Origin: an uncultured virus (IMG/VR IMGVR_UViG_3300031787_000080)
Lineage: Duplodnaviria; Heunggongvirae; Uroviricota; Caudoviricetes
Direction: 5' to 3' (one strand)
DNA: 64,000 bases
IMG/VR virus record: IMGVR_UViG_3300031787_000080
In this document: positions 7,212 through 55,535 of the stretch, piece after piece
Layout: every line of letters starts with the position of its first letter
How positions within the stretch are numbered: the stretch's first letter is position 1
Translations under genes and position numbers: made by a program
The notes under the pieces: model-generated
Told to the model about the DNA's origin: nothing
Seen by the model: only the letters and a program-made list of their open reading frames with translations
Databases searched by the model: none

Positions 7212-7504
7212 TGGAACAAGACGTTTCTCAATATATTTTCATCTCACAAGAAAGCATTGACAAAGCTAAGAAACTTATGAAAAAAGCTCCAGAATCATTA
7301 GAAGATTGGGCAGAAGAAAATTCGCGGAAAGAACGCCGATTAGAAACTCGACGCAGATACTATCGTGAAAACAAAATTCAAATCAATGTTCGACGTAAAG
7401 AACGAAAAGAAGAAATTCGAGCTGAACAGATTAGAACAGAAAAAGAACTATCGGACAAGCTTCAAATGACACTAAATTTTGATTCTGATCGTAGTAATAA
7501 TTAA
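7211..7504 (+). CDS. Hypothetical basic coiled-coil protein
   Basis: TAATG coupling. Confidence 0.6.
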   Translation: MEQDVSQYIFISQESIDKAKKLMKKAPESLEDWAEENSRKERRLETRRRYYRENKIQINVRRKERKEEIRAEQIRTEKELSDKLQMTLNFDSDRSNN

Positions 7505-7505
7505 G

Positions 7506-8738
7506 ATGAGAAGTTTTTTGTCTCAGGATTTATATAAAATTACGATGAGCCAAGCAGTTTGGCGACTGTTTCCTAATGCCTGGGTGAAATATCACTATAA
7601 GCTTCGAACAAAAAACGTCAATCTTGCCCCGATTAAAGATCGAATTGATCGCAAAATTCATCAACTTCAAGGTATTGGGCCGACGGCGCTAGAAATCAAC
7701 TTTCTTCGATCATTGGGATATTTTGATCCGTCATTTTTGGCATCATTGGCACATTTCAAACTGAACCCAGATGCGTATGTGAAAACAAGCGTGGATCAAG
7801 GGCATTTTGATCTCGTGATCGAAGGACCTTGGTATGATACGATCTTCTTCGAAGTTATGCTGTTGCAAATCATCTCGGAAACATATTTCGAAGATCACGC
7901 CCGCGAACACCCAGAGGTTTTCGAGGAAGGCAGACAGCGATTGAATGAAAAAATCGAGCACTTGCTTCACATCTACGATCAGTATACAGATCATTACGAA
8001 AGTCTAAGGGACCTTGAGGGCGGGGGAGAACTCAATCCTTTCTGCCTGATGGAATTCGGCACTCGTCGAGCTTTTTCAGAATCGTGGCAAGGAGAAGTTG
8101 TTGAAACACTTGCGCAAAAACTTCCGCGTGAAATGTTCCTCGGTACATCAAACGTGTATTGGGCACAACAACTTGGGCTTAAGCCACAAGGCACGATGGC
8201 GCACGAATATATCTGTGCTCATGGAGCGCTTTATCCCTTGCATGAGGCGCAAAAGCAAGCTTTCTACAATTGGAACAAGGTGTTCCAAGGCAAGCTCGGA
8301 ACCGCGCTTTCAGATACATTCACTTTTGATCAATTCCTAAGAGACTTTGATTCGGGCTTGGCCAACTTGTTTACAGGAGCTAGGCACGACTCTGGTGATC
8401 CGTTCGAGTGGGGCCACAAACTCATTGAACACTATCGAACACTGGGAATCAACACTCATACCAAAGTGGCTGTGTGGAGCGATAATCTAGATATCGAGCT
8501 GGCAGAAAAGCTTTGGAAAACTTTTGCCCCGAAAATTAAAACATCATTCGGGATCGGGACCAATTTGACTAATGACATGGGGTTAAAGCCTTTGTCACAA
8601 GTCATTAAGCTTACTCATGTGAACAACATGCCAGTGATTAAGATTAGTGATGAACCCGAGAAAGTGATGTGCGAAGATGAAACATACAAGGCCTGGGCTT
8701 TGCGACTATTTACAGAAATTTTACCAAATCAATCATGA
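7506..8738 (+). CDS. pncB: Nicotinate phosphoribosyltransferase
   Basis: DLYK.TM.QA, EFGTRR, GTSN, GTMAHE, RHDSGDP, FGIGTNLTND, KISD.P.K motifs. Confidence 0.92.
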   Translation: MRSFLSQDLYKITMSQAVWRLFPNAWVKYHYKLRTKNVNLAPIKDRIDRKIHQLQGIGPTALEINFLRSLGYFDPSFLASLAHFKLNPDAYVKTSVDQGHFDLVIEGPWYDTIFFEVMLLQIISETYFEDHAREHPEVFEEGRQRLNEKIEHLLHIYDQYTDHYESLRDLEGGGELNPFCLMEFGTRRAFSESWQGEVVETLAQKLPREMFLGTSNVYWAQQLGLKPQGTMAHEYICAHGALYPLHEAQKQAFYNWNKVFQGKLGTALSDTFTFDQFLRDFDSGLANLFTGARHDSGDPFEWGHKLIEHYRTLGINTHTKVAVWSDNLDIELAEKLWKTFAPKIKTSFGIGTNLTNDMGLKPLSQVIKLTHVNNMPVIKISDEPEKVMCEDETYKAWALRLFTEILPNQS

Positions 8739-11552: not shown

Positions 11553-12099
11553 TCTCGCACTTTATAAAGCATCCACAGAGTATTTTAAGCAAGACCCTAA
11601 AACACTCCAGTTTTACTCTGTGGATTTTGAAGATGACGACACATTGCGCACATTACAAGGCATCGGATCAGTTGTTGTCCGCACGCACCCGCGCACTGAA
11701 CTGATTTCTTTCTATGCTGATTTTCGCAACAAAGAATTGCAATATGCGCTCGGAGTTAAAATGCTCGGGGTTAATTTTGCCACGATCAGAGAACTAACTC
11801 CCAATTGCAGCTTTTTTGATGATGAATGTACGTTCTATTTTCATGCCGAAAATCCAGATCAATTAGGAGATGTATATTTCCAAGAATACAGACGATATCA
11901 CAATCTTAGAGACAATTTAGCACAAACATCAAAGCTCAGTCGAAAGAAAATCGCTAAAGAGCTTGAACATTTTGATTCTTATGAAGAATATCGAGCTTTT
12001 CGAGCTGGGGCAATTTTCTTCGTGATCTTTAACATCTGCCGAAAGTATAATATGACTTTTGTGCAAATCCCTTCATGCAGACTGGATCGAGCTTTTTAA
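11536..12099 (+). CDS. Hypothetical protein
   Basis: After promoter embedded in upstream gene. Confidence 0.7.
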   Translation: MMNPNNLALYKASTEYFKQDPKTLQFYSVDFEDDDTLRTLQGIGSVVVRTHPRTELISFYADFRNKELQYALGVKMLGVNFATIRELTPNCSFFDDECTFYFHAENPDQLGDVYFQEYRRYHNLRDNLAQTSKLSRKKIAKELEHFDSYEEYRAFRAGAIFFVIFNICRKYNMTFVQIPSCRLDRAF

Positions 12100-12100
12100 A

Positions 12101-12529
12101 ATGCAGACATTTCTTCCATATCCTGATTTTAAGAAAAGCGCACAGTCTCTCGATTATAGACGATTGCAAAACCAGATCGTTGAATGCCACCAATTGCTTA
12201 AAGCTCTCACGAGCCCCGAGCCAAGAGGGTGGCGAAACCACCCAGCTGCACTTATGTGGAAGGGGCATGAAAAGGCGTTAGCACAATATGCTGAAGCGTG
12301 CTGGGATGAATGGAAAAATCGAGGCTACGGCCCCGATCACAAATCCATTGTTAAAATTCGAGAAATAGCGCAAGCACTTCGATCAACAGACGAATCGCCC
12401 CGATGGATCGGTGATGAAGAATTTCATGCTTCTCATCGGGGAAATCTACTAAGAAAAGATTTGGCTTATTATAGCCAATACAACTGGACAGAAAGCCCCG
12501 ATCTGGAGTATATCTGGCCAACACCATAA
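12101..12529 (+). CDS. Pyrimidine dimer DNA glycosylase family (MSMEG_6728-like)
   Basis: MQTFLPY.DF..SA..LD.RRL..Q.VE, HPA..MW.G, HASHR.NLLRKD..YY. Confidence 0.8.
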   Translation: MQTFLPYPDFKKSAQSLDYRRLQNQIVECHQLLKALTSPEPRGWRNHPAALMWKGHEKALAQYAEACWDEWKNRGYGPDHKSIVKIREIAQALRSTDESPRWIGDEEFHASHRGNLLRKDLAYYSQYNWTESPDLEYIWPTP

Positions 12530-12544
12530 AAGAGAACAAACATA

Positions 12545-12736
12545 ATGACCGATAACGAACGACAAGAACTAGAACTCTTCCTTAAAGACATTGAAGTGCT
12601 TCAGGAAACTTTCACCACATTGCCCGATAAGATGCAAAGCACTATCGGCAAGGACATGGCGATTCAGATGGGCGATATTATGCAAGAGATTAAACGACTC
12701 AAAGCAGAAACGCTTGTTGAGCTAGGGTTGGTTTAA
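12545..12736 (+). CDS. Hypothetical protein
   Basis: Small ORF in gene run. Confidence 0.6.
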   Translation: MTDNERQELELFLKDIEVLQETFTTLPDKMQSTIGKDMAIQMGDIMQEIKRLKAETLVELGLV

Positions 12737-12741
12737 TTGAC

Positions 12742-13101
12742 ATGACAGAGCAGCAACAAATCAAACTTTTTCAAGAAATAGTCAAGATGGCAGCCAGTAA
12801 TCCAACTGCTCATGAATTGGGTGAGTCCGTTGCTGAGTTGTTAAAAGAGAATAACGCGCTCGAATGGTGGGACAAAAAAACCAACCGCACCACATTCACC
12901 AAAGAAGAACAAGAGGTTATTCACGCAGTAAAAAGTGGTTGGCAGTTTTATCGAATGGATGGTAAAAACTGGTATTGGATGAATGATGTGGAAGACCCAT
13001 GGACATGCCCGCGCATGCCGAATATAAGATATGTTTCTACGCGAATGATAAACAGGCTAAAAGCCTGCGGGCAGTTTCCCAAAAACTACAAATTCGCTTA
13101 A
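12742..13101 (+). CDS. Hypothetical protein
   Basis: ORF in gene run. Confidence 0.65.
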   Translation: MTEQQQIKLFQEIVKMAASNPTAHELGESVAELLKENNALEWWDKKTNRTTFTKEEQEVIHAVKSGWQFYRMDGKNWYWMNDVEDPWTCPRMPNIRYVSTRMINRLKACGQFPKNYKFA

Positions 13102-13524: not shown

Positions 13525-13565
13525 AAAATCCCCCTTTTCATAAACTCTGATCGGATATATAAATC

Positions 13566-13868
13566 ATGCCGAAATTCAAAGTTGATTTCATTGTTCAGAA
13601 CTTTCCCGATCCCGACGAGTCCGCATACCTAGCGACAAGAGAAGCTGTTCGCAATCAGCTCAAACATACTAAGGTCAAAACTAGGCAATGGAATAGGAGC
13701 ACTACAACTATTGTCTATACAGAATTTTGTGATGATGCTGTGATCGGATATGAAGACTGGAAAGAAAAGTATCTCGAAAGCCTGATCGAAGAAGTCAAAG
13801 AAAAGGGAGTCGTGATCCGAAGTGTTGAGATCACTGCCACATCTTACGAATACATTATCCAAGACTGA
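13566..13868 (+). CDS. Hypothetical protein, paralog family C
   Basis: KH.K..TR.W and DD.VIGY.D..EKYL shared with 14186. Confidence 0.75.
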   Translation: MPKFKVDFIVQNFPDPDESAYLATREAVRNQLKHTKVKTRQWNRSTTTIVYTEFCDDAVIGYEDWKEKYLESLIEEVKEKGVVIRSVEITATSYEYIIQD

Positions 13869-28386: not shown

Positions 28387-28913
28387 AGATTACTAAGTTT
28401 GCAGACATTCCTCAATACACCCGAGGGGCAAATTACGCAGTTAATGTTCCCTGGAGCCACTTGGAACGTGCGCTTGAAGCTTACAATGAGGGATGCACTA
28501 ATCTTTATCTGGACCCTGATTTCCAACGCGGTCATGTCTGGTCACTTGATAAGAAGATTGCTTATGTTACATACATTCTTCGCGGTGGTCAAGGCAGTCG
28601 TGAAATTAAGTTCAATCATCCTAATTGGTCAAATAGTGTCAAAGGAGATATGGTTCTTGTTGACGGTAAACAAAGACTTGAGGCTGTTCGTGGATTTCTT
28701 AGAGATGAATTCCCAATTTATGGTAGCTTGTTCAGTGAATTTACTGATGAATTGCGAATCATGCGATGCGATTTTGTTTTCCAAGTGAATGATTTGAAAA
28801 CCAGAGAGGAAGTTTTACAATGGTATCTTGACTTGAATAGCGGTGGTGTTGTTCACACCGAAGAAGAGCTTAATCGAGTCAGAGAAATGCTTGAAAAGGA
28901 AAAGGGGAATTAA
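28383..28913 (+). CDS. DUF262 (ParB/Srx-like) domain protein
   Basis: PDFQRGHVWS, VDGKQRL, LN.GG..H. Confidence 0.85.
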   Translation: MKITKFADIPQYTRGANYAVNVPWSHLERALEAYNEGCTNLYLDPDFQRGHVWSLDKKIAYVTYILRGGQGSREIKFNHPNWSNSVKGDMVLVDGKQRLEAVRGFLRDEFPIYGSLFSEFTDELRIMRCDFVFQVNDLKTREEVLQWYLDLNSGGVVHTEEELNRVREMLEKEKGN

Positions 28914-28953
28914 AAAATCCCCTTTTTCAGAATAATGATCGGATATAAGAAGC

Positions 28954-29301
28954 ATGAGTGAAGATTTTTTGAACGGTTTTGCTATCGGTGCTGTTGCGAT
29001 TATAGTTATTTGGGTTTGCTCGGCAATTAAGGCGAGTATTCCAAAACCTACAAACATGGGGTGGCTCGATGGATCGGGTGATTGGATTGAGGTGGTTCGT
29101 ATCGGTCACTCAGGAGTGACTGTGCGACATTGTGGGTATAATTCACGTAATTCACACTGGACATTTAGGCGCTGTGCAGAAGATGCTGGCTGGCCTCTTT
29201 CCAAGATGCTTGATTACCTGGGCCTTCCCGATGAAAAGACACTCAAGGAAGCTGACATGACCATGGGTGAATGGCTTTCACAAAAAAATAAAAATTCTTG
29301 A
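28954..29301 (+). CDS. Membrane-anchored hypothetical protein, paralog family F
   Basis: N-terminal TM; CA.DAGW...KM...LGLPDE..LKE..MT.GEWL shared with 29803. Confidence 0.75.
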   Translation: MSEDFLNGFAIGAVAIIVIWVCSAIKASIPKPTNMGWLDGSGDWIEVVRIGHSGVTVRHCGYNSRNSHWTFRRCAEDAGWPLSKMLDYLGLPDEKTLKEADMTMGEWLSQKNKNS

Positions 29302-29369
29302 AACTTTTCAAAGGTGATCGCCGTATAACAAAAGAACATACACAAAGCAAAAGCTTTAAGGACACAATT

Positions 29370-29438
29370 ATGACTCGCCGATATCTTTCACTGCTAGGAC
29401 TCTTATCGCTTTCTCTTGAGAAAGCGGCGATTAGCTGA
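29370..29438 (+). CDS. Leu-rich leader peptide MTRRYLSLLGLLSLSLEKAAIS (putative attenuator)
   Basis: TAAGGA SD; 7 Leu codons; followed by terminator then tRNA-Leu genes. Confidence 0.8.
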   Translation: MTRRYLSLLGLLSLSLEKAAIS

Positions 29439-29459
29439 TAGATTTTGCGATCAGTGTTT

Positions 29460-29500
29460 AATCCCCGATTTCTCTCAAGGAGTCGGGGATTTTTGTTTTT
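29460..29500 (+). terminator. Intrinsic terminator (attenuator) upstream of tRNA-Leu pair
   Basis: AATCCCCGATTTC/GGAGTCGGGGATT stem plus TTTGTTTTT. Confidence 0.85.
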
Positions 29501-29511
29501 GCGTTTCACAT

Positions 29512-29596
29512 ACCGCTCTGGAGTAGCCAAACTTGCTACAGGCAACAGTCTTAGAAACTGTCTCTTTTCTGGGTTGGAATCCCAGGGGCGGTACCA
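29512..29596 (+). tRNA. tRNA-Leu(TAG), atypical
   Basis: ACCGCTC/GGGCGGT acceptor, ACAGT-CT TAG AA-ACTGT, CCA; enlarged D region, short variable loop. Confidence 0.75.
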
Positions 29597-29647
29597 ATAT
29601 TGACAATAGAATAGAGGAAAGAGAAAATAGATTTTCGAGTGATAAAT

Positions 29648-29734
29648 GCGGACGTGGCGGAATTGGTTTACGCGCTACTTTGAGATGGTAGTCCCCGATT
29701 GGGGGTGTGGGTTCGAGTCCCACCGTCCGCACCA
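29648..29734 (+). tRNA. tRNA-Leu(GAG)
   Basis: Full cloverleaf, long variable arm, CCA. Confidence 0.95.
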
Positions 29735-29802
29735 AAAATCCCTCAAATTTTCGAGCCGCGATTGTATATATGAATTATGAATGATTTTCATGGGAGTGCT
29801 CT

Positions 29803-30159
29803 TTGTCTAGTTGGCTGATCGGGTTGATTATCACGTTCTTTGTGATTTATTTTTTCTTCGGGAGTCAAAACCTTGATGATGAAGAAGAAGATTTAGAGTA
29901 CTTACATTCTTGGAAAGATGGAAATGGCTTTACGACTAAAGTAATCCAAATCGGTCACGATAAGATCGTTGTAGAAAATTTTAGCAGAAAGCGCGGGCGA
30001 AAAGTTCGGGTGTGGACTGTTGAAGAATGCGCCAAAGACGCAGGATGGTCAGTTGAAAAGATGAGAGATCATCTTGGCCTTCCCGATGAAAGCGCTTTAA
30101 AAGAAGTTGAAATGACTCTTGGCGAGTGGCTTCACGAAAAGAATCAACATCAAAGATAG
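29803..30159 (+). CDS. Membrane-anchored hypothetical protein, paralog family F
   Basis: Similar to 28954. Confidence 0.75.
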   Translation: MSSWLIGLIITFFVIYFFFGSQNLDDEEEDLEYLHSWKDGNGFTTKVIQIGHDKIVVENFSRKRGRKVRVWTVEECAKDAGWSVEKMRDHLGLPDESALKEVEMTLGEWLHEKNQHQR

Positions 30160-30213
30160 AACCGATCAGTAAAAAATCCCCTGTTTTCGTGGGGGATTTT
30201 TGATAGATAAAGC

Positions 30214-30624
30214 ATGGCAACACGAGGCTGGGAGCCCACAGACTACAATCCGAACATTATTCGTGATGTTTCTAATCGAACCATTGAAGAATTTGAAAAC
30301 GATATTCGATTTTCTCGTGACTGGGGCTTCGTACAAAGTTATGGCCTTGAAAGAGCTACTCAGCTTCTGGGTCGAGCCCCAGATACCCGAGCAGTTGAAT
30401 TCTTTAATGAGTTCATGTCTCAGTATTCCCGAGCCGTCGAGCTTATGGAACAGCTAGGCATCAAAAAGAAGATTCTGAAAAAATTCAAGCGATATCCGAT
30501 TGCTCCTTGTCTTTATGCTGATTTGAATGAAGAATGTAATGATGTATTGACGGGATCGAAAATCGGTGGAATTCCTGACCAGCGCCAAGCTGGAAGTGCG
30601 CTGTCTTCAAGGCAATATTGTTAG
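30214..30624 (+). CDS. Hypothetical protein
   Basis: After palindromic promoter. Confidence 0.65.
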   Translation: MATRGWEPTDYNPNIIRDVSNRTIEEFENDIRFSRDWGFVQSYGLERATQLLGRAPDTRAVEFFNEFMSQYSRAVELMEQLGIKKKILKKFKRYPIAPCLYADLNEECNDVLTGSKIGGIPDQRQAGSALSSRQYC

Positions 30625-31339
30625 TCGCATCAAGGCAGCTTGGCCCAAGGATTCAAATGGTAAATATATGATATTCGTTGGCCAAATCAAAGTGCCTGGA
30701 CACATCGTCGCTCCCTGGGATTATATCATGGGCGAGAAAATAGACAAGTATGGAAATTATGATCGACCTCTTAATGGGTTTAGCCACGGGCAGAACATTT
30801 TTGAACAAGAGCATACTTATTTAATTTTTCGCAGTGCGCATGCACCAAATTTTGGAGACATGTTCGATTGTGCGATGGTGCATTCTCGCTTCGATGCCAA
30901 TGAATCGGTAAAGGAAGATAAATATATTGAGGCTGTGAAAAAAGCTATTCCGCAGTATCGCCGAAGCAACATGGAAGACAATTGTCCAATTTGGAGTGAT
31001 CGGTGTCACACGCTAACTGATTACCGAGTTAGCATGACGCTTGATTTAATTCGCGACTTTGAATGGGCAGGTGGGTTTGAAGGCAATGTATTTGATTACA
31101 TAGATTCGTGGAGAGAACACTTCGGTTCTTATGGCACAATTCAAATTTTTGGCGATCCAAGATCACAACAGACCCCACAGCGATTTGCTGAAACACGCAC
31201 TGTTTACCGTCCTCGAATGATGCGCCCGTGGCTTGGAATGACAGACCTAAAGCACGATTACACTTGGCAATATAATTTTTGTCACGAAGGTTTTCTGAGT
31301 GAATCAATTATGGGCAAAGTTGATGGAAGCTGTACCTAA
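30566..31339 (+). CDS. Hypothetical protein
   Basis: 257-aa ORF, start uncertain. Confidence 0.6.
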   Translation: MEFLTSAKLEVRCLQGNIVSRIKAAWPKDSNGKYMIFVGQIKVPGHIVAPWDYIMGEKIDKYGNYDRPLNGFSHGQNIFEQEHTYLIFRSAHAPNFGDMFDCAMVHSRFDANESVKEDKYIEAVKKAIPQYRRSNMEDNCPIWSDRCHTLTDYRVSMTLDLIRDFEWAGGFEGNVFDYIDSWREHFGSYGTIQIFGDPRSQQTPQRFAETRTVYRPRMMRPWLGMTDLKHDYTWQYNFCHEGFLSESIMGKVDGSCT

Positions 31340-31383
31340 TTAAAAATCCCCTGTTTTTCATGGGGGATTTTGATATATAAGGC

Positions 31384-31785
31384 ATGGCTGATTATTACAC
31401 CCATTTTTCCTTTGTCGTTGACGTTAAGAATCGTGAACAAGCAGACGGTTTGAAGAAAATGCTCACCCAGGCCAAAAATGAAGAGCTAAATGAAGAAACT
31501 TTGTACACTCCTTGGAGTTGTGAAACTAAGGACGATTTAACTAGCTTTTGGTTTCACTCTGATGATTGTGGTCAGGTTGATCTTATTGTTGACATTTTGG
31601 CTAAATGGCAAGAAGACTTCAATTACGATCAGCCCATTTGTTTTGAGTGGGCGAATACTTGTAGTAAGCCCAAACTGGATGCTTTTGGTGGTGGGTCAGT
31701 TCTGATTTACAAGGGCGAAGCTCATTACACGAACACTTTTGATTGGTTGACTAAAAAGAAAGCCGAACTTGGAATCGTTGACTGA
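31384..31785 (+). CDS. Hypothetical phage protein
   Basis: MADYYT.FS...WA.TCSKP.LD.FGGG. Confidence 0.75.
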   Translation: MADYYTHFSFVVDVKNREQADGLKKMLTQAKNEELNEETLYTPWSCETKDDLTSFWFHSDDCGQVDLIVDILAKWQEDFNYDQPICFEWANTCSKPKLDAFGGGSVLIYKGEAHYTNTFDWLTKKKAELGIVD

Positions 31786-31830
31786 CTAAAAAATCCCCTG
31801 TTTTTCAATAGGGGATTTGATATATCAATT

Positions 31831-31967
31831 GTGCCAAGAAGCACTTGAAGTGCAGTCTACGGATATGCCTTATTAGGGCATGTGATTACTGCGTAGGAAG
31901 GACAGGGTGTAATGAAGTACGGTCGCGACGAAAAGTTACATCGGGTTAAAATCCCAACTTGGCACCA
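31831..31967 (+). ncRNA. tRNA-like structured RNA ending in CCA
   Basis: GTGCCAAG/CTTGGCAC terminal stem, T-arm-like GGG TTAAAAT CCC, own promoter. Confidence 0.6.
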
Positions 31968-31989
31968 AATTGAAAAATGAGAATCTAAT

Positions 31990-32290
31990 CGGGGCGTGGC
32001 GAAATGGCAGACGCAGGGGACTTATAAAATGAGCACTTGTTTGTGAAAGCTGCAAGTGAATGCAATCAAATTCGGTGAAACCTTAACAGTTAGGCTGATG
32101 GCAATACCGAGCCAAGCTAACTCAAAACAGAGTTAGAAGGTGTAGAGACTAGATGGTTGCTGCCTAAGTCGAAAGATATGGCAAAGGTATAGTCCAGACC
32201 ACAAAATCCTTTGGGATCGTAGTGAAAGCTATAGTGGTATGAAAATCCCTTAGTAGCAATACTGTGTGGGTTCGAGTCCCACCGCCCCGA
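31990..32290 (+). tRNA. tRNA-Leu(TAA) interrupted by a group I intron
   Basis: Exons 31990-32013 and 32242-32290 join to give GGGGA-CT TAA AA-TCCCT arm, T arm and CGGGGCG/CGCCCCG acceptor. Confidence 0.92.
32014..32241 (+). mobile_element. Group I intron (228 nt, no ORF)
   Basis: Inserted after anticodon U, ends in G; core elements AAATTCGGTGAA (P), AATACCGAGC (Q), GTAGAGACTAGA (R), AGGTATAGTCCA (S). Confidence 0.9.
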
Positions 32291-32340
32291 TTAGGTTATA
32301 TATTGATTACTAATGCGCTTTGTGTGCTTTTAGTATAAGA

Positions 32341-32838
32341 ATGTTTGTGTCACGTTTGCAAAAATATACCCTAGAGGAGATAAAAGAAATAATATCTAAA
32401 TCAAAATCTTATGCTGAAGTAATTCGATCTATTGGTTTAATTCCTGCTGGTGGAAATTACAAAACATTGCAAAGTTTTGTACATGAATACCGAATTGATA
32501 CTTCGCATTTTCTGGGCTCAGCTTGGGGGCGAGGAAACCAATTGGATTATCTCCACAATAGCAATAGAAAATCATTAGAAGATGTTTTTTCGGGAAAAGT
32601 AGCTTATAAATCAAGCCATAAATTAAGGCTTCGGCTGATTAAAGAAGGATATTTTGAGCATAAATGCTATAAATGTGGACTAAAAGAGTGGCAAGGACAC
32701 GAAATACCCTTGGAATTAGAGCATATAAATGGAGATCATTGTGATAACAGTCTCGAAAACCTCATTATTCTTTGCCCCAACTGTCATGCTCAAACAGAAA
32801 CTTATGCTGGTAAAAACAAAAAAAGACGATTAGGTTAA
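32341..32838 (+). CDS. HNH homing endonuclease
   Basis: C..CG...W....PLELEHINGD..DN.LENL..LCPNCHAQT. Confidence 0.9.
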   Translation: MFVSRLQKYTLEEIKEIISKSKSYAEVIRSIGLIPAGGNYKTLQSFVHEYRIDTSHFLGSAWGRGNQLDYLHNSNRKSLEDVFSGKVAYKSSHKLRLRLIKEGYFEHKCYKCGLKEWQGHEIPLELEHINGDHCDNSLENLIILCPNCHAQTETYAGKNKKRRLG

Positions 32839-32878
32839 AAATCCCCTAAATTTTTCTTCAGATTTCGATAAATTAATT

Positions 32879-33127
32879 ATGATCGATGACAAAAGAACTT
32901 CAGAATGTGTTATTCTTCATATTGAAGTTGATGTTGAGTACCCTGAAGGAATGCATCTTGGGGTTGTTCTATCTGGTTTGCAAAACAATGCGAAAATTGC
33001 CATTACTGAACTTGATGACGATAGGGTCCAAATCACAGCAAATAGAATCACAGCAGTTGAACATTTTGTTACTGGAGAAATTTTAGAAGATTACCAGTGG
33101 AAAAAGAAAAAAGAATCTCCTCGATAA
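32879..33127 (+). CDS. Hypothetical protein
   Basis: After promoter variant. Confidence 0.6.
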   Translation: MIDDKRTSECVILHIEVDVEYPEGMHLGVVLSGLQNNAKIAITELDDDRVQITANRITAVEHFVTGEILEDYQWKKKKESPR

Positions 33128-33131
33128 ATGT

Positions 33132-33215
33132 GCCGCAGTGGTGGAATGGTAGACACGGCAAGCTCAAACCTTGCTGCCGAAAGGCGTGAAGGTTCGAATC
33201 CTTTTTGCGGCACCA
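33132..33215 (+). tRNA. tRNA-Leu(CAA)
   Basis: Full cloverleaf, long variable arm, CCA. Confidence 0.95.
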
Positions 33216-33283
33216 TATTTTCACATATGCATGACTATGTGAAAAATCCCCTGTTTTCTCTTTCTTGATCGGATATATAAATC

Positions 33284-33913
33284 ATGTTTAATATGAATGT
33301 GATTCTTTTCAAGAACAATTCTATCGAAGAAAATTATCTTTTCTCTGGTGAAAATTCTGAAGATGTTGCGAAAAAGGCAGAAAGCAAAATGATTGAAATT
33401 CTTCGTTCAGAAATGTCTAACTTTGACGAATACACGTCGGAAGATATTGACAACATTTTGGAAGATGGATATGAATCCTTTGGAAATGGAGCGGTTTTTA
33501 TTACGTGGCCTGACATTGTTGATGTTGATAAGGAGATTGATTCGGAAAATAATTTTGTTTTTCGTGGCACTATTGAATACTCCATCCCGCACATTGATTC
33601 AGAAGTAGTTCGCCTGTGCGCCGCACTAAATGAGCCCATTGAAGTTGGTCTACAGTGGGAATCACATTATCGCAATGGTAATGGCTACGCTGTCCGCGTT
33701 AATGCAGATATCTACTCAGTTGATGAAGAACTTGCTGCCGAGGAATTTAGTGATTATTGGGATTCAGGATGCGATGATGAAATTCGCTATTCTGGGGACT
33801 ACAATTGGTCCCTTTTGGGCAAAGACTATAAAGAGGCCATCAGTATTCTCCAAAAGTATGTTGATGAGCAAAAGCGTCGTTACCCAGGCTACGATATTAG
33901 AATTAGCAAATAA
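33284..33913 (+). CDS. Hypothetical acidic protein
   Basis: After promoter; C-terminus related to 23074. Confidence 0.7.
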   Translation: MFNMNVILFKNNSIEENYLFSGENSEDVAKKAESKMIEILRSEMSNFDEYTSEDIDNILEDGYESFGNGAVFITWPDIVDVDKEIDSENNFVFRGTIEYSIPHIDSEVVRLCAALNEPIEVGLQWESHYRNGNGYAVRVNADIYSVDEELAAEEFSDYWDSGCDDEIRYSGDYNWSLLGKDYKEAISILQKYVDEQKRRYPGYDIRISK

Positions 33914-35018: not shown

Positions 35019-35097
35019 AAAACAAAAAACTGCTAACAAAAAGCAGGTGATCGTCGTATAATAAGAGAAGAAACTGAAAAGCACAAAGAGCTATATT

Positions 35098-35220
35098 ATG
35101 AATCATCTCTTATCGACGACAATATGTGGAACAACAGGAACCTCAACAAGAGGAATCCTTTCCCTTGGCGTTATCGGCAAGGATAGTGATTCTGATTCAG
35201 GAGAACCCATCGAATCGTAG
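35098..35220 (+). CDS. Ser/Thr/Gly-rich leader peptide (40 aa, putative attenuator)
   Basis: MNHLLSTTICGTTGTSTRGILSLGVIGKDSDSDSGEPIES; followed by terminator and tRNA-Gly/Ser/Thr. Confidence 0.78.
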   Translation: MNHLLSTTICGTTGTSTRGILSLGVIGKDSDSDSGEPIES

Positions 35221-35240
35221 CTTTACTGTGATTACAGAAC

Positions 35241-35281
35241 AAAGAGGCTCGATTCGATAAGATCGAGCCTCTTTTCTTTTT
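35241..35281 (+). terminator. Intrinsic terminator (attenuator) upstream of tRNA-Gly/Ser/Thr
   Basis: AAAGAGGCTCGAT/ATCGAGCCTCTTT stem plus TCTTTTT. Confidence 0.88.
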
Positions 35282-35410
35282 AGATATGATGTCTGGGAAG
35301 AGAAAGATCGAATATTGAAAATTTCATACAGGTATAGATATAAAAGTGTTAGGGGGTGTTGGATCGATCTTTGATCGCAGGCCTCACCCCCTTGATCGAG
35401 ACACATTTTC

Positions 35411-36205: not shown

Positions 36206-36320
36206 TTTTTCGCACATATGTGTCAGGGGTTCGAATCCCCTCTCCTGCTTTGAGTTGAGTGATGATATCCGATCATAAAAAATCCCCCTTTTTCTCAATA
36301 GTGATCGGATATATAAAGTA

Positions 36321-36917
36321 TTGCTGTGAGCTAAATCAATTGACACAGCATGATGAAACCAAAATCATCTAAAAACAATAAGGTGCTCCATATACGTCTG
36401 GGAAAGATAAATTAGACGTGGACACACTGTGATGTGGACTAATCACAGCGCACTGGGGCATGTGTGCAAGCCCGAAAAGCCTATCTTTACTGATATAGTT
36501 AAAGAGAAAGAGCAGAGAGTTAAGGCTTAAAATAAACTCCATGCGTTCGTAAGGATGAACTCAAAGACGAGTTCAGTTATGACTAGGATACGAGAGGAGG
36601 GAGGCAATGAGTTTCTCTCCTCTCCCCGACAAAGCGATTTCCGACTGCTCATCGGAGAAGTGATCTAGTAAAACACTCAGAAAAACACTAGCGTAGGAAA
36701 TGCGTTAATCCCTGATTTTTTATCGGTTTTTAGAGACAAAAAACTGTTCGTATAGGGCTTGCGGTAAGCCTCTTGTTTTAGCTAGGTGATCCTGTATGTA
36801 AAAACCAAGCGGATGGAACAAATCAATTTGTTTTCGCGAGCAAATGATCCATTGACTTTGGGGAACAGCGTAAGAACGTTTCGCCATGAGGCTTTGAGCA
36901 AAGTCTCGTTCCCCAAA
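36321..36917 (+). ncRNA. Large (~600 nt) structured non-coding RNA candidate
   Basis: Own promoter, no plus-strand ORF of 60 aa or more, more than ten hairpins, abuts tRNA-Asp. Confidence 0.7.
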
Positions 36918-36931
36918 AATAAAAAGATTCT

Positions 36932-43545: not shown

Positions 43546-43755
43546 ATGAACGATTCAAATCGCTTTGAAGTAATCAGCTCAGGTCCATACAATTTGAAGA
43601 TTGTTGCGCAAACTATGACTGAGTGCATGGATATGATTCGACGAAACTCTGACATGGTGGACTTCTGGGCAGTTTTAGACCATTCTACGAAAACCGTGGT
43701 CGCTTTAAGCCAGGACTGGAAAGTCTTGCCAACATTCAAACCCGCAGTAAACTAA
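43546..43755 (+). CDS. Hypothetical protein
   Basis: After promoter; coupled to PARP gene. Confidence 0.6.
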   Translation: MNDSNRFEVISSGPYNLKIVAQTMTECMDMIRRNSDMVDFWAVLDHSTKTVVALSQDWKVLPTFKPAVN

Positions 43756-45035
43756 TGAAAGAATCTCGATATATTTTCGCTGACGTGAGCGCGAATAATA
43801 ACAAGTTTTGGAACATCAAAATTGAACCAAACTTCACGGTCGTAACTTCGTGGGGCCGAGTCGGAGATAACGCACAATCAAAGGAATTTCCCCACGGAAG
43901 CCTTGCAGACGCAGAAAAGTTCTTCGATAGGAAATGCCGCGAAAAGGAACGAAAAGGATACGTTAAGCAAAGAGTTCTGATCGGAGAATACACCACGCAA
44001 GATAACACTTCGCTTGCGTCAGTTGCCAAACAACAAATCAACACAAATAGCCCCGAATTAGATGAACTAATTGCCTTCCTGACTAAAGCAAACGTTCATA
44101 ACATTCTAACAGCAACAGCTATGGAATACGACACTTCAAAGGGAGTTTTTACAACGCCCCTCGGAGTTGTCACGAACGATGCCATTCAAGATGCACGAAG
44201 CATCTTGGCATCAATGGGCCTTCTTGTGCATAATCAAGATTGGAACTCCCCCGATTGGAATTCGCTCTTGTCTATGTACCTTACTGCCATCCCTCAAAAG
44301 ATTGGACGCAGAAAGCCAGACCCAAGAGAACTCTTCCCGAGCCTTCAAGCTATTCAAAATCAAAGCAAAATTCTTGACGACCTGGAAGCATCATTCCAAT
44401 CTGTCGTGAGCGCACCACTGACGCAGAAAGGGGATGACACAAACACGCCACAAGTGTTTGATGTGAAATTGCATCTTGTAGACGATCAAAGCATAATTCG
44501 ACGAATCAAAAACAAATACGACTCCACACGAAAGACCATGCACGCATCATATCATCTGGGGGTGAAACGAGTCTTTTCTGTCGAAATTAACGCGATGGCA
44601 AAGGCATATGGTGATCGGGGAAAGAACGTCGGCAACGTGATGGAACTCTGGCATGGGACACGAGCGGGGAACCTTTTGAGCATCCTTAAAGGCGGACTGC
44701 AAGTCCCACCCGCATCGAGCCCTCATGTGACGGGGAGAATGTTCGGGGATGGATTGTATTTTTCAGATCAGTCCACGAAAAGCCTCAATTATGCCTATGG
44801 AGCAGCACCAGGACAAAGAGGAGGAATTGAATCGTCCACGTTCATGTTTCTCGCAGATGTAGCAATGGGACGCCCATTTGTCCCAACGTCCTATACACGA
44901 CCGTCAAAGTACCCCGTGCAAGGACATGATTCAATATTTGCAAAAGCAGGACAATCAGGCGTACACAATAATGAAATGATCGTATACACCACCGATCAAT
45001 GCAACCTCACCTACCTGGTTGAATTCGGAAACTAA
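43755..45035 (+). CDS. WGR-domain poly(ADP-ribose) polymerase-like protein
   Basis: NNNKFW, WGRVG, EK..KGY; regulatory-like Y.T.IP; catalytic LWHGT, G.MFG.GLYFSD...KS.NY, NNE.IVY. Confidence 0.9.
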   Translation: MKESRYIFADVSANNNKFWNIKIEPNFTVVTSWGRVGDNAQSKEFPHGSLADAEKFFDRKCREKERKGYVKQRVLIGEYTTQDNTSLASVAKQQINTNSPELDELIAFLTKANVHNILTATAMEYDTSKGVFTTPLGVVTNDAIQDARSILASMGLLVHNQDWNSPDWNSLLSMYLTAIPQKIGRRKPDPRELFPSLQAIQNQSKILDDLEASFQSVVSAPLTQKGDDTNTPQVFDVKLHLVDDQSIIRRIKNKYDSTRKTMHASYHLGVKRVFSVEINAMAKAYGDRGKNVGNVMELWHGTRAGNLLSILKGGLQVPPASSPHVTGRMFGDGLYFSDQSTKSLNYAYGAAPGQRGGIESSTFMFLADVAMGRPFVPTSYTRPSKYPVQGHDSIFAKAGQSGVHNNEMIVYTTDQCNLTYLVEFGN

Positions 45036-55442: not shown

Positions 55443-55535
55443 ATGAAGACCCACACCACATCAAATACGAATATGGTCTTCACCCGACGCAATTCCGCGA
55501 CGGGCGTCCAACAACGCTGTCGGCGTTCCGCTTAA
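55443..55535 (+). CDS. Leader peptide MKTHTTSNTNMVFTRRNSATGVQQRCRRSA (putative attenuator)
   Basis: TATAAT and TAAGGA SD; QQRCRR matches the downstream Gln/Gln/Arg/Arg/Cys tRNAs. Confidence 0.75.
   Translation: MKTHTTSNTNMVFTRRNSATGVQQRCRRSA

Follow-up and report, generated by a model that had tools for sequence, protein, structure and literature searches.

At positions 29288 to 29734 of a 64,000-nucleotide (nt) stretch of DNA from an uncultured virus (IMG/VR record IMGVR_UViG_3300031787_000080; the whole stretch is called the window here), a promoter-like region, a small leucine (Leu)-rich open reading frame (ORF) and an intrinsic terminator stand ahead of two genes: a transfer RNA (tRNA)-shaped gene with TAG in its anticodon loop, and a standard gene for tRNA-Leu(GAG). 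All of these features, and units G and Q described below, lie on the plus strand. The source is a giant freshwater (lake) phage, which is also represented by a near-identical virus record of 378,848 bp (hereafter G001). How phages control their own tRNA genes is poorly understood, and the debate turns on codon usage and on escape from host defences that target tRNAs. We computed the sequence elements of this locus, their energies, their rarity and their parallels elsewhere in the same phage.

The leader starts with a putative promoter (29288-29329), in which an A-tract is followed by TTGAAA and then by GGTGATCGCCGTATAAC (29313-29329). The latter contains an exact GATCGNNNTATAA at 29316 and a -10-like TATAAC at 29324-29329, and the region aligns with a near-identical copy, GGTGATCGTCGTATAAT (~35046-35062), ahead of a Gly/Ser leader. 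A Shine-Dalgarno-like AAGGA (29358-29362) precedes the ATG by 7 nt. The sequence AAGGACAC is present in seven copies in the window versus 1.4 expected, and one other copy precedes a small ORF ahead of tRNA-Gln genes. The leader ORF (29370-29438) runs for 22 codons from the ATG at 29370 to a TGA at 29436-29438, with MTRRYLSLLGLLSLSLEKAAIS as the predicted peptide. As an earlier note on this DNA had claimed, seven of the 22 codons specify Leu (codons 6, 8, 9, 11, 12, 14 and 16) and five Leu codon types are used (CTT three times, then CTG, CTA, CTC and TTA), though the use of five types is ordinary for this phage. Equal richness (at least 6 Leu and at least 32% Leu) is reached by 3 of the 995 ATG ORFs of 12-40 codons in the window.

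The second half of the ORF overlaps a series of alternative RNA pairings. Hairpin 1:2 (29406-29427), a candidate protector and possibly a pause site, is the tip of a longer hairpin at 29371-29453. Its core at 29407-29426 consists of eight Watson-Crick pairs and one U-G pair closed by a 4-nt loop (-10.4 kcal/mol). The earlier note had described a perfect hairpin with a TT loop at this place; the hairpin is there, but a 2-nt loop cannot form and one of the pairs is the U-G. The longer hairpin, at about -26 kcal/mol, is part of the minimum-energy fold and sequesters region 2 when the RNA is free of ribosomes and the pairing span is unrestricted. The folding z-score of the 146-nt leader region is -4.3. 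Region 2 (29415-29432), the 5' strand of the antiterminator, overlaps codons 16-21. Its pairing with the 5' arm and loop of the terminator (region 3, 29460-29479), also claimed previously, was confirmed, with a duplex energy of -14.3 kcal/mol. The terminator (regions 3:4, 29460-29500), identified by a terminator scan, is a hairpin of 14 pairs at 29460-29491 (-20.6 kcal/mol) followed by TTTTTGTTTTT; from its end to the tRNA-shaped gene there are 12 nt, without a promoter box in between. The whole 2:3 antiterminator structure (29415-29479), which encloses a small hairpin containing the stop codon (29434-29455, -4.9 kcal/mol), amounts to -20.9 versus -20.6 kcal/mol for the terminator. The antiterminator is therefore energetically competitive, a point on which the earlier note had let its proposal stand or fall.

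We also calculated the energy gained when region 3 is added to the 45 nt upstream of it. This antiterminator gain was -15.3 kcal/mol, versus -4.5 +/- 2.6 kcal/mol in dinucleotide shuffles of the same 45 nt, and was matched by 4 of 2000 shuffles. With the entire 90-nt leader free, the gain was 0, because the long hairpin at 29371-29453 holds region 2. For the comparison with natural controls given below, the 90-nt version of the metric, which gave 0 for the Leu site, was replaced by the 45-nt version.

Beyond the terminator, the tRNA-shaped gene (29512-29596) forms a cloverleaf, which is its minimum-energy fold, with a 7-bp acceptor stem, TAG in a 7-nt loop, the T-loop TTGGAAT and an encoded CCA. 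It is non-canonical in having extra bases before the D arm and a short variable region in place of the long variable arm of a canonical tRNA-Leu. ARAGORN reported it solely at a relaxed threshold (-ps80), with a different anticodon arm, and the Rfam tRNA model gave it 25 bits against a cut-off of 29, in an alignment that puts UAG as the anticodon. What had been called tRNA-Leu(TAG) is thus a TAG-loop cloverleaf in the expected place, but not a standard tRNA-Leu, being missed by ARAGORN at its default setting and falling below the Rfam cut-off; in view of these features and scores, its identity as a leucine acceptor is putative. A sigma-70-like promoter match (29600-29628; TTGACA, 17 nt, GAAAAT) follows, which is a consensus match only, at 10 of 12 positions. 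The tRNA-Leu(GAG) gene (29648-29734) is standard (ARAGORN; Rfam 57.6 bits). Two further Leu tRNA genes had been placed within 3.5 kb downstream, and both were found: tRNA-Leu(TAA) at 31989-32291 and a standard tRNA-Leu(CAA) at 33132-33215 (ARAGORN). In the former, a 218-nt group I intron (Rfam Intron_gpI, 58 bits; ARAGORN intron mode) interrupts the anticodon behind its first base, the site at which cyanobacteria and plastids carry an intron in tRNA-Leu(UAA). Downstream of tRNA-Leu(TAA) lies an HNH-like ORF (32320-32838), whose Pfam HNH_3 match is weak (E = 0.006).

To mimic a translating ribosome, we barred 30 nt around each A-site codon in turn from pairing and folded the nascent transcript, which ended at 29479. 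With the A-site at any of codons 1-12, Leu codons 6, 8, 9, 11 and 12 included, the minimum-energy fold was the antiterminator, and 13-17 bases of the terminator 5' arm were paired upstream. The antiterminator was absent with the ribosome at codons 13-19 or at the stop codon. A span limit of 60 or 80 nt left the outcome for the Leu unit essentially the same, with one stray value of 12 at codon 18 and span 60. Footprint-constrained folding, which the earlier note had suggested as a check, therefore reproduces a 1:2 / 2:3 / 3:4 logic. The accompanying claim that a stall on Leu codons frees the antiterminator holds in this model for codons 6, 8, 9, 11 and 12 and fails for codons 14 and 16.

We consider it fairly likely that the unit at 29288-29734 gates phage tRNA genes as a ribosome-mediated leader-peptide transcription attenuator. 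The predicted ribosome-mediated switch, as originally proposed, is supported by the footprint folds and, as described below, by sister units and cognate-codon enrichment; that the ORF is translated, that transcription terminates, how the unit responds to stalling and which biological signal it reads are inferences. Transcription would start at the promoter-like site near 29324-29329, and the 22-codon leader would be translated while RNA polymerase advances. When charged tRNA for CUN and UUA is plentiful, the ribosome would reach the last codons or the TGA and cover region 2 (29415-29432); the 3:4 terminator (29460-29500) would then form and stop transcription 12 nt before the tRNA genes. Were the ribosome instead to lag or stall at Leu codons 6-12, region 2 would be free to pair with region 3 (29460-29479), no terminator would form, and the polymerase would enter the TAG tRNA-shaped gene and then tRNA-Leu(GAG). 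The phage would probably make more of these leucine tRNAs when Leu codons are read slowly. Such a feedback loop would supply more CUN-reading tRNAs upon slow decoding, for example when host tRNAs are scarce or damaged.

We looked for parallels to the Leu unit (unit L) in G001, for which ARAGORN predicted 34 tRNA genes, 15 of them in the window. For each of 67 terminator-like hairpins in G001 we calculated the gain in energy when its 5' arm pairs with the 45 nt upstream, and ranked the hairpins by this gain. The Leu unit ranked second. Rank 1 went to the terminator of unit G (window 35241-35274), which stands before tRNA-Gly(TCC) and Ser(TGA), and rank 3 to that of unit W (G001 312836-312866), which stands before tRNA-Trp. 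Four of the 67 hairpins lie no more than 250 nt upstream of a tRNA gene, and they took ranks 1, 2, 3 and 66; the rank-66 terminator follows another tRNA-shaped sequence. That the top three ranks all stand before tRNA blocks has a hypergeometric P of 8e-5 (Mann-Whitney P = 0.046).

Unit G (35033-35283) comprises a promoter-like site (35033-35062), a 40-codon ORF from the ATG at 35098 to a TAG at 35218-35220, and the terminator at 35241-35274 with its T-run. Its antiterminator strand is situated at the end of the ORF, and its block consists of tRNA-Gly(TCC), Ser(TGA), Thr(TGT) and Asp(GTC). In both G and W, a promoter-like site is joined by a Shine-Dalgarno-like AAGAG, and the small ORF has its final codons overlapping, or immediately upstream of, the antiterminator 5' strand; in all three units, L, G and W, the stop codon is at or just after that strand. 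Units L and G have a common promoter-like and 5' leader sequence and different peptides, each matching its own tRNAs. With the span limited to 60-80 nt, the antiterminator of units G and W was lost only once the ribosome reached the last codons. A possible further unit, Q, has a 30-codon ORF (55443-55535) that ends in VQQRCRRSA and precedes two tRNA-Gln genes, Arg(TCG), Arg(GCG) and Cys(GCA). We found no strong terminator at the units labelled K, Y, Q and D. The interval 36206-36931, between tRNA-Thr(TGT) and tRNA-Asp(GTC), is without a long ORF and has a terminator-like hairpin near 36755-36785.

We then asked how well the codons of each leader match the tRNAs that follow. In the Leu leader, 6 of 21 codons are cognate to the next anticodons TAG and GAG, versus 4.4% expected from 99,211 gene codons (binomial P = 2e-4); the empirical P against 4634 small ORFs of the phage is 0.005. 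The unit G ORF contains 16 codons, out of 39, cognate to its next four tRNAs (P = 8e-5 by gene codon usage, 0.0016 by small ORFs). Near the end of the unit Q ORF, QQRCRR represents six consecutive cognate codons, and its 8 cognate codons of 29 correspond to P = 8e-4 by gene usage and 0.03 by small ORFs, or an adjusted 0.06 in the head scan described next. When leaders and blocks of L, G, Q and W were deliberately mismatched, all 12 pairings gave P >= 0.11 with both definitions of the tRNA set.

Because some small ORFs had been noticed through their composition, we also applied fixed rules to the complete set of 21 tRNA block heads. ORFs of 10-60 codons with an ATG start, lying outside long ORFs and ending between 300 nt upstream of and 40 nt inside the head tRNA, were scored against the tRNAs within 2 kb, with correction for the number of ORFs. 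Four of the 21 heads passed at adjusted P<0.05 (binomial P = 0.019; Fisher P = 0.02 with the 7 ORF-less heads set to P = 1). Among the 14 heads with a candidate ORF, 4 had adjusted P<0.05 and 7 had P<0.1, versus 8/252 and 19/252, respectively, when the same ORFs were scored against the disjoint codon sets of other heads (binomial tails 8e-4 and 3e-5). There was no convincing small-ORF signal at the heads Leu-TAA, Leu-CAA, Thr-GGT, Met, Arg-TCT and Lys-TTT (48582).

Other small ORFs at tRNA genes include MRHNILKRKPKHY, which precedes two tRNA-Lys genes, and MESDYHYTIG, upstream of tRNA-Tyr. A 22-codon ORF with three consecutive His codons, MSDDHHHSTKLHMASVAQWQST (L031 4692-4760, equal to G001 324692-324760), has its start 39 nt upstream of tRNA-His(GTG) and its end within that gene; no terminator separates the two. 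Across 757,696 six-frame positions, HHH was counted 69 times. This His ORF (MSDDHHH...) may represent a second mechanism, in which the position of the ribosome controls the folding or processing of the tRNA precursor.

Taken as a whole, these parallels make it quite possible, though we put this forward tentatively, that the Leu unit is a member of a phage-wide set of codon-matched leader-peptide attenuators acting as a distributed sensor of decoding capacity. Under this tentative whole-set reading there would be at least three units, namely Leu, Gly/Ser/Thr/Asp and the Trp-led block of twelve, and perhaps seven with the Gln/Arg/Cys, Lys, His and Tyr leaders included. Each tRNA block would then be switched on when its own codons are read slowly, as might happen after anticodon nucleases have cleaved host tRNAs or as infection depletes them.

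Several observations weigh against an attenuator at the Leu locus. Regarding the leader, two other small ORFs in the window equal its Leu richness, and its choice among Leu codons (6 of 7 are CTN) is unremarkable because 66% of the Leu codons in phage genes are CTN. A ribosome stalled at Leu codons 14 or 16 would mask region 2. When the full-length RNA was folded at equilibrium, the terminator was retained at all ribosome positions, so the choice must be kinetic, as it is in classical attenuators. With the span limited to 60-80 nt, the ribosome-free RNA also adopted the antiterminator; the protector therefore depends on long-range pairs, and termination would then need a ribosome at the end of the ORF in time. 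In units G and W, the antiterminator was kept at every ribosome position, the stop codon included, when the span was unlimited, and a dependence on the ribosome appeared under the span limit alone. The codon match of unit W is weak (P = 0.07 to 0.29). The first gene after the Leu terminator is a sub-threshold tRNA, and the promoter-like site at 29600-29628 means that tRNA-Leu(GAG) may also be transcribed separately. Regions 1 and 3 resemble each other in sequence, as do regions 2 and 4, and a hairpin duplicated in this way would yield 2:3 complementarity without selection. The 5' arm of the terminator resembles the common phage AAAAATCCCC box, which forms hairpins at ordinary gene ends too. 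Lastly, no diverged relative of the locus was found in collections of phage, viral, metagenome and genome contigs. On the other side, we count in favour of an attenuator that 28950-29800 is letter-identical among contigs of four separate studies.

The Leu richness, the paired similarities and the resemblance to the AAAAATCCCC box would also fit an ordinary terminator of the upstream gene (28954-29301), with an incidental small ORF arising from a CT-rich stretch and adjacent similar hairpins, the more so as there is no terminator between the stop of that gene (29301) and the leader. However, the tRNA-shaped gene starts 12 nt past the T-run with no promoter box of its own, and is therefore reachable by read-through only. 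Furthermore, ranks 1, 2 and 3 of 67 for antiterminator potential fall exactly at three tRNA-block terminators, only 4 of 2000 shuffles matched the antiterminator gain, and the cognate-codon enrichment recurs at other tRNA blocks and not in mismatched pairings. We therefore regard an ordinary terminator as unlikely.

Alternatively, the locus could be a real attenuator that responds to another signal, such as a protein of the phage or its host, an RNA (small RNA or tRNA) binding to the leader, or the timing of infection, with an ORF that senses nothing. The alternative structures are well supported independently of the ORF, the antiterminators of units G and W persist at all ribosome positions under an unlimited span, and the codon match of unit W is weak, all of which would suit such a device. 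A scan of 28800-33400 with Rfam cmscan returned a sub-threshold resemblance to the PyrR binding site (RF00515; 27.3 bits versus a cut-off of 54, E = 0.92, over 29405-29497), another point on the side of this reading; the resemblance reflects the three-hairpin layout only. The same scan at E<=1 gave no Leu_leader or other leader family, T-box or riboswitch. Shine-Dalgarno-like sites are present, all three units have their stop codon at or just after the antiterminator 5' strand, and the leaders vary in composition in step with their own tRNAs. We count these points against a different signal, which we regard as improbable. That the ORF encodes a functional micro-protein, with hairpins that stabilise or end its messenger RNA, is very improbable: a good Shine-Dalgarno site, a signal-peptide-like composition (basic N-terminus and hydrophobic LSLLGLLSLSL core) and small membrane peptides near other phage tRNA genes, such as a 32-residue ORF ahead of tRNA-Arg(TCT), favour it, but the hydrophobic stretch spans just 11 residues, and the antiterminator, the position of the stop codon and the parallel units with non-hydrophobic peptides would be left unexplained.

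The searches for relatives gave the following. In the phage collection, blastn returned nothing beyond tRNA-Leu look-alikes at 74-79% identity. Of the viral-contig scans with neighbouring proteins or a tRNA stretch, one yielded a single 16-residue match, another a 38% rIIA match and a third no match. Three identical copies and one distant contig without tRNAs were recovered from metagenome contigs, and genome contigs returned no relative, with one chance match inside a Flavobacteriaceae gene. The promoter 15-mer had 40 single chance matches in viral contigs, and one such contig has two unrelated tRNAs. The upstream gene has protein relatives at 89% and 84% identity.

Positions in the window equal those of G001 plus 11,592. 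In a gapless position-by-position comparison, the end of G001 does not match the first 11,592 bases of the window. Among the 52,408 positions common to both there are 84 mismatches, all within 11692-12847, a local hypervariable gene region of 1.2 kb that holds every difference between the two. The segment 28900-30300 is identical. The genes that flank the Leu unit (28954-29301 and 29803-30159) are paralogues with 41% identity and a common C-terminal GW..KM.D.LGLPDE..LKE..MT.GEWL, and the leader and its tRNA pair therefore sit between duplicated genes.

Upstream of most genes in the window stands a phage-specific motif, AAAA(A/T)CCC(C) (64 regex hits for this first part), mostly followed ~19-20 nt on by a (T)GATCGGATATATAA-like box located 3-8 nt before the start codon. 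The two-part motif occurs in ~60 copies in the window, for example at 28914-28956, 33243-33286 and 13525-13568, and is probably a phage-specific promoter giving nearly leaderless messenger RNAs. In a few copies (30173, 31343, 31790, 45037 and 45381) the GATCGGATATATAA-like box serves as the 5' arm of a hairpin. The phage also carries two adjacent CTA-anticodon tRNA genes (amber suppressors, labelled tRNA-Pyl by ARAGORN; L029 14691-14858, equal to G001 294691-294858), with a further tRNA-shaped sequence and a terminator upstream of them. The CTA tRNAs hint at read-through or recoding of TAG in part of the phage life cycle. TAG is the stop codon of the leaders in units G and K. A PARP-like protein (43755-45035; Pfam WGR, PARP_reg and PARP catalytic domains) and a nicotinate phosphoribosyltransferase (7479-8738) are encoded in the window as well, which suggests functions related to nicotinamide adenine dinucleotide.

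If the Leu unit works as an attenuator, the phage would gauge decoding speed directly and tune its tRNA supply codon by codon. Textbook attenuation would extend to a new class of target, tRNA genes, and the unit would offer a simple part of ~200 bp, portable to other settings, for reading out how available a chosen tRNA is. A full-text literature search, judged by its result listings, turned up no description of leader-peptide attenuation of tRNA genes: the mechanism is known for genes of amino-acid synthesis, and tRNA genes would be a new target for it. Phenylalanine, the amino acid of the pheV tRNA, has classical attenuators (pheA, pheST). We considered a possible Phe leader ahead of E. coli pheV itself as a precedent and rejected it, since the 105 nt upstream of the gene in K-12 hold no Phe-rich ORF; pheU and pheV are described as monocistronic with leaders of 3-4 nt (PMC7049720).

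The closest known systems are the leader-peptide attenuators of enterobacteria. These include trpL, hisL, leuL, thrL, ilvL and pheL and control amino-acid operons. Like them, the Leu unit combines a short ORF, in which control codons abound, with a 1:2 protector, a 2:3 antiterminator and a 3:4 intrinsic terminator, and, according to the footprint folding, its stop codon lies where a ribosome that completes the ORF would mask region 2. For pheL, the attenuation model is restated in PMC3082878. Unlike the enterobacterial leaders, the Leu unit belongs to a phage, its Leu codons are mixed with others (LSLLGLLSLSL) and make no unbroken run, and its terminator precedes tRNA genes instead of biosynthetic enzymes, so that what it would control does not make or charge an amino acid.

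Some classical attenuators are multivalent: the thr leader combines Thr and Ile codons, and the leader of ilvGMEDA those for Ile, Val and Leu. Unit G of the phage similarly mixes Gly, Ser, Thr and Asp codons, and unit Q ends in QQRCRR before Gln, Gln, Arg, Arg and Cys tRNA genes. In contrast to thr and ilv, the control codons in the phage match the tRNA genes that follow rather than an enzyme pathway, and the Leu unit would sense one amino acid. T-box leaders, found at aminoacyl-tRNA synthetase genes of Gram-positive bacteria, bind uncharged tRNA directly and need no ORF. The Leu unit resembles them as a predicted terminator/antiterminator switch that would report on one tRNA species and feed back on the translation apparatus, but it differs in giving no T-box match at E<=1 and in carrying a predicted leader ORF, through which the ribosome itself would do the sensing.

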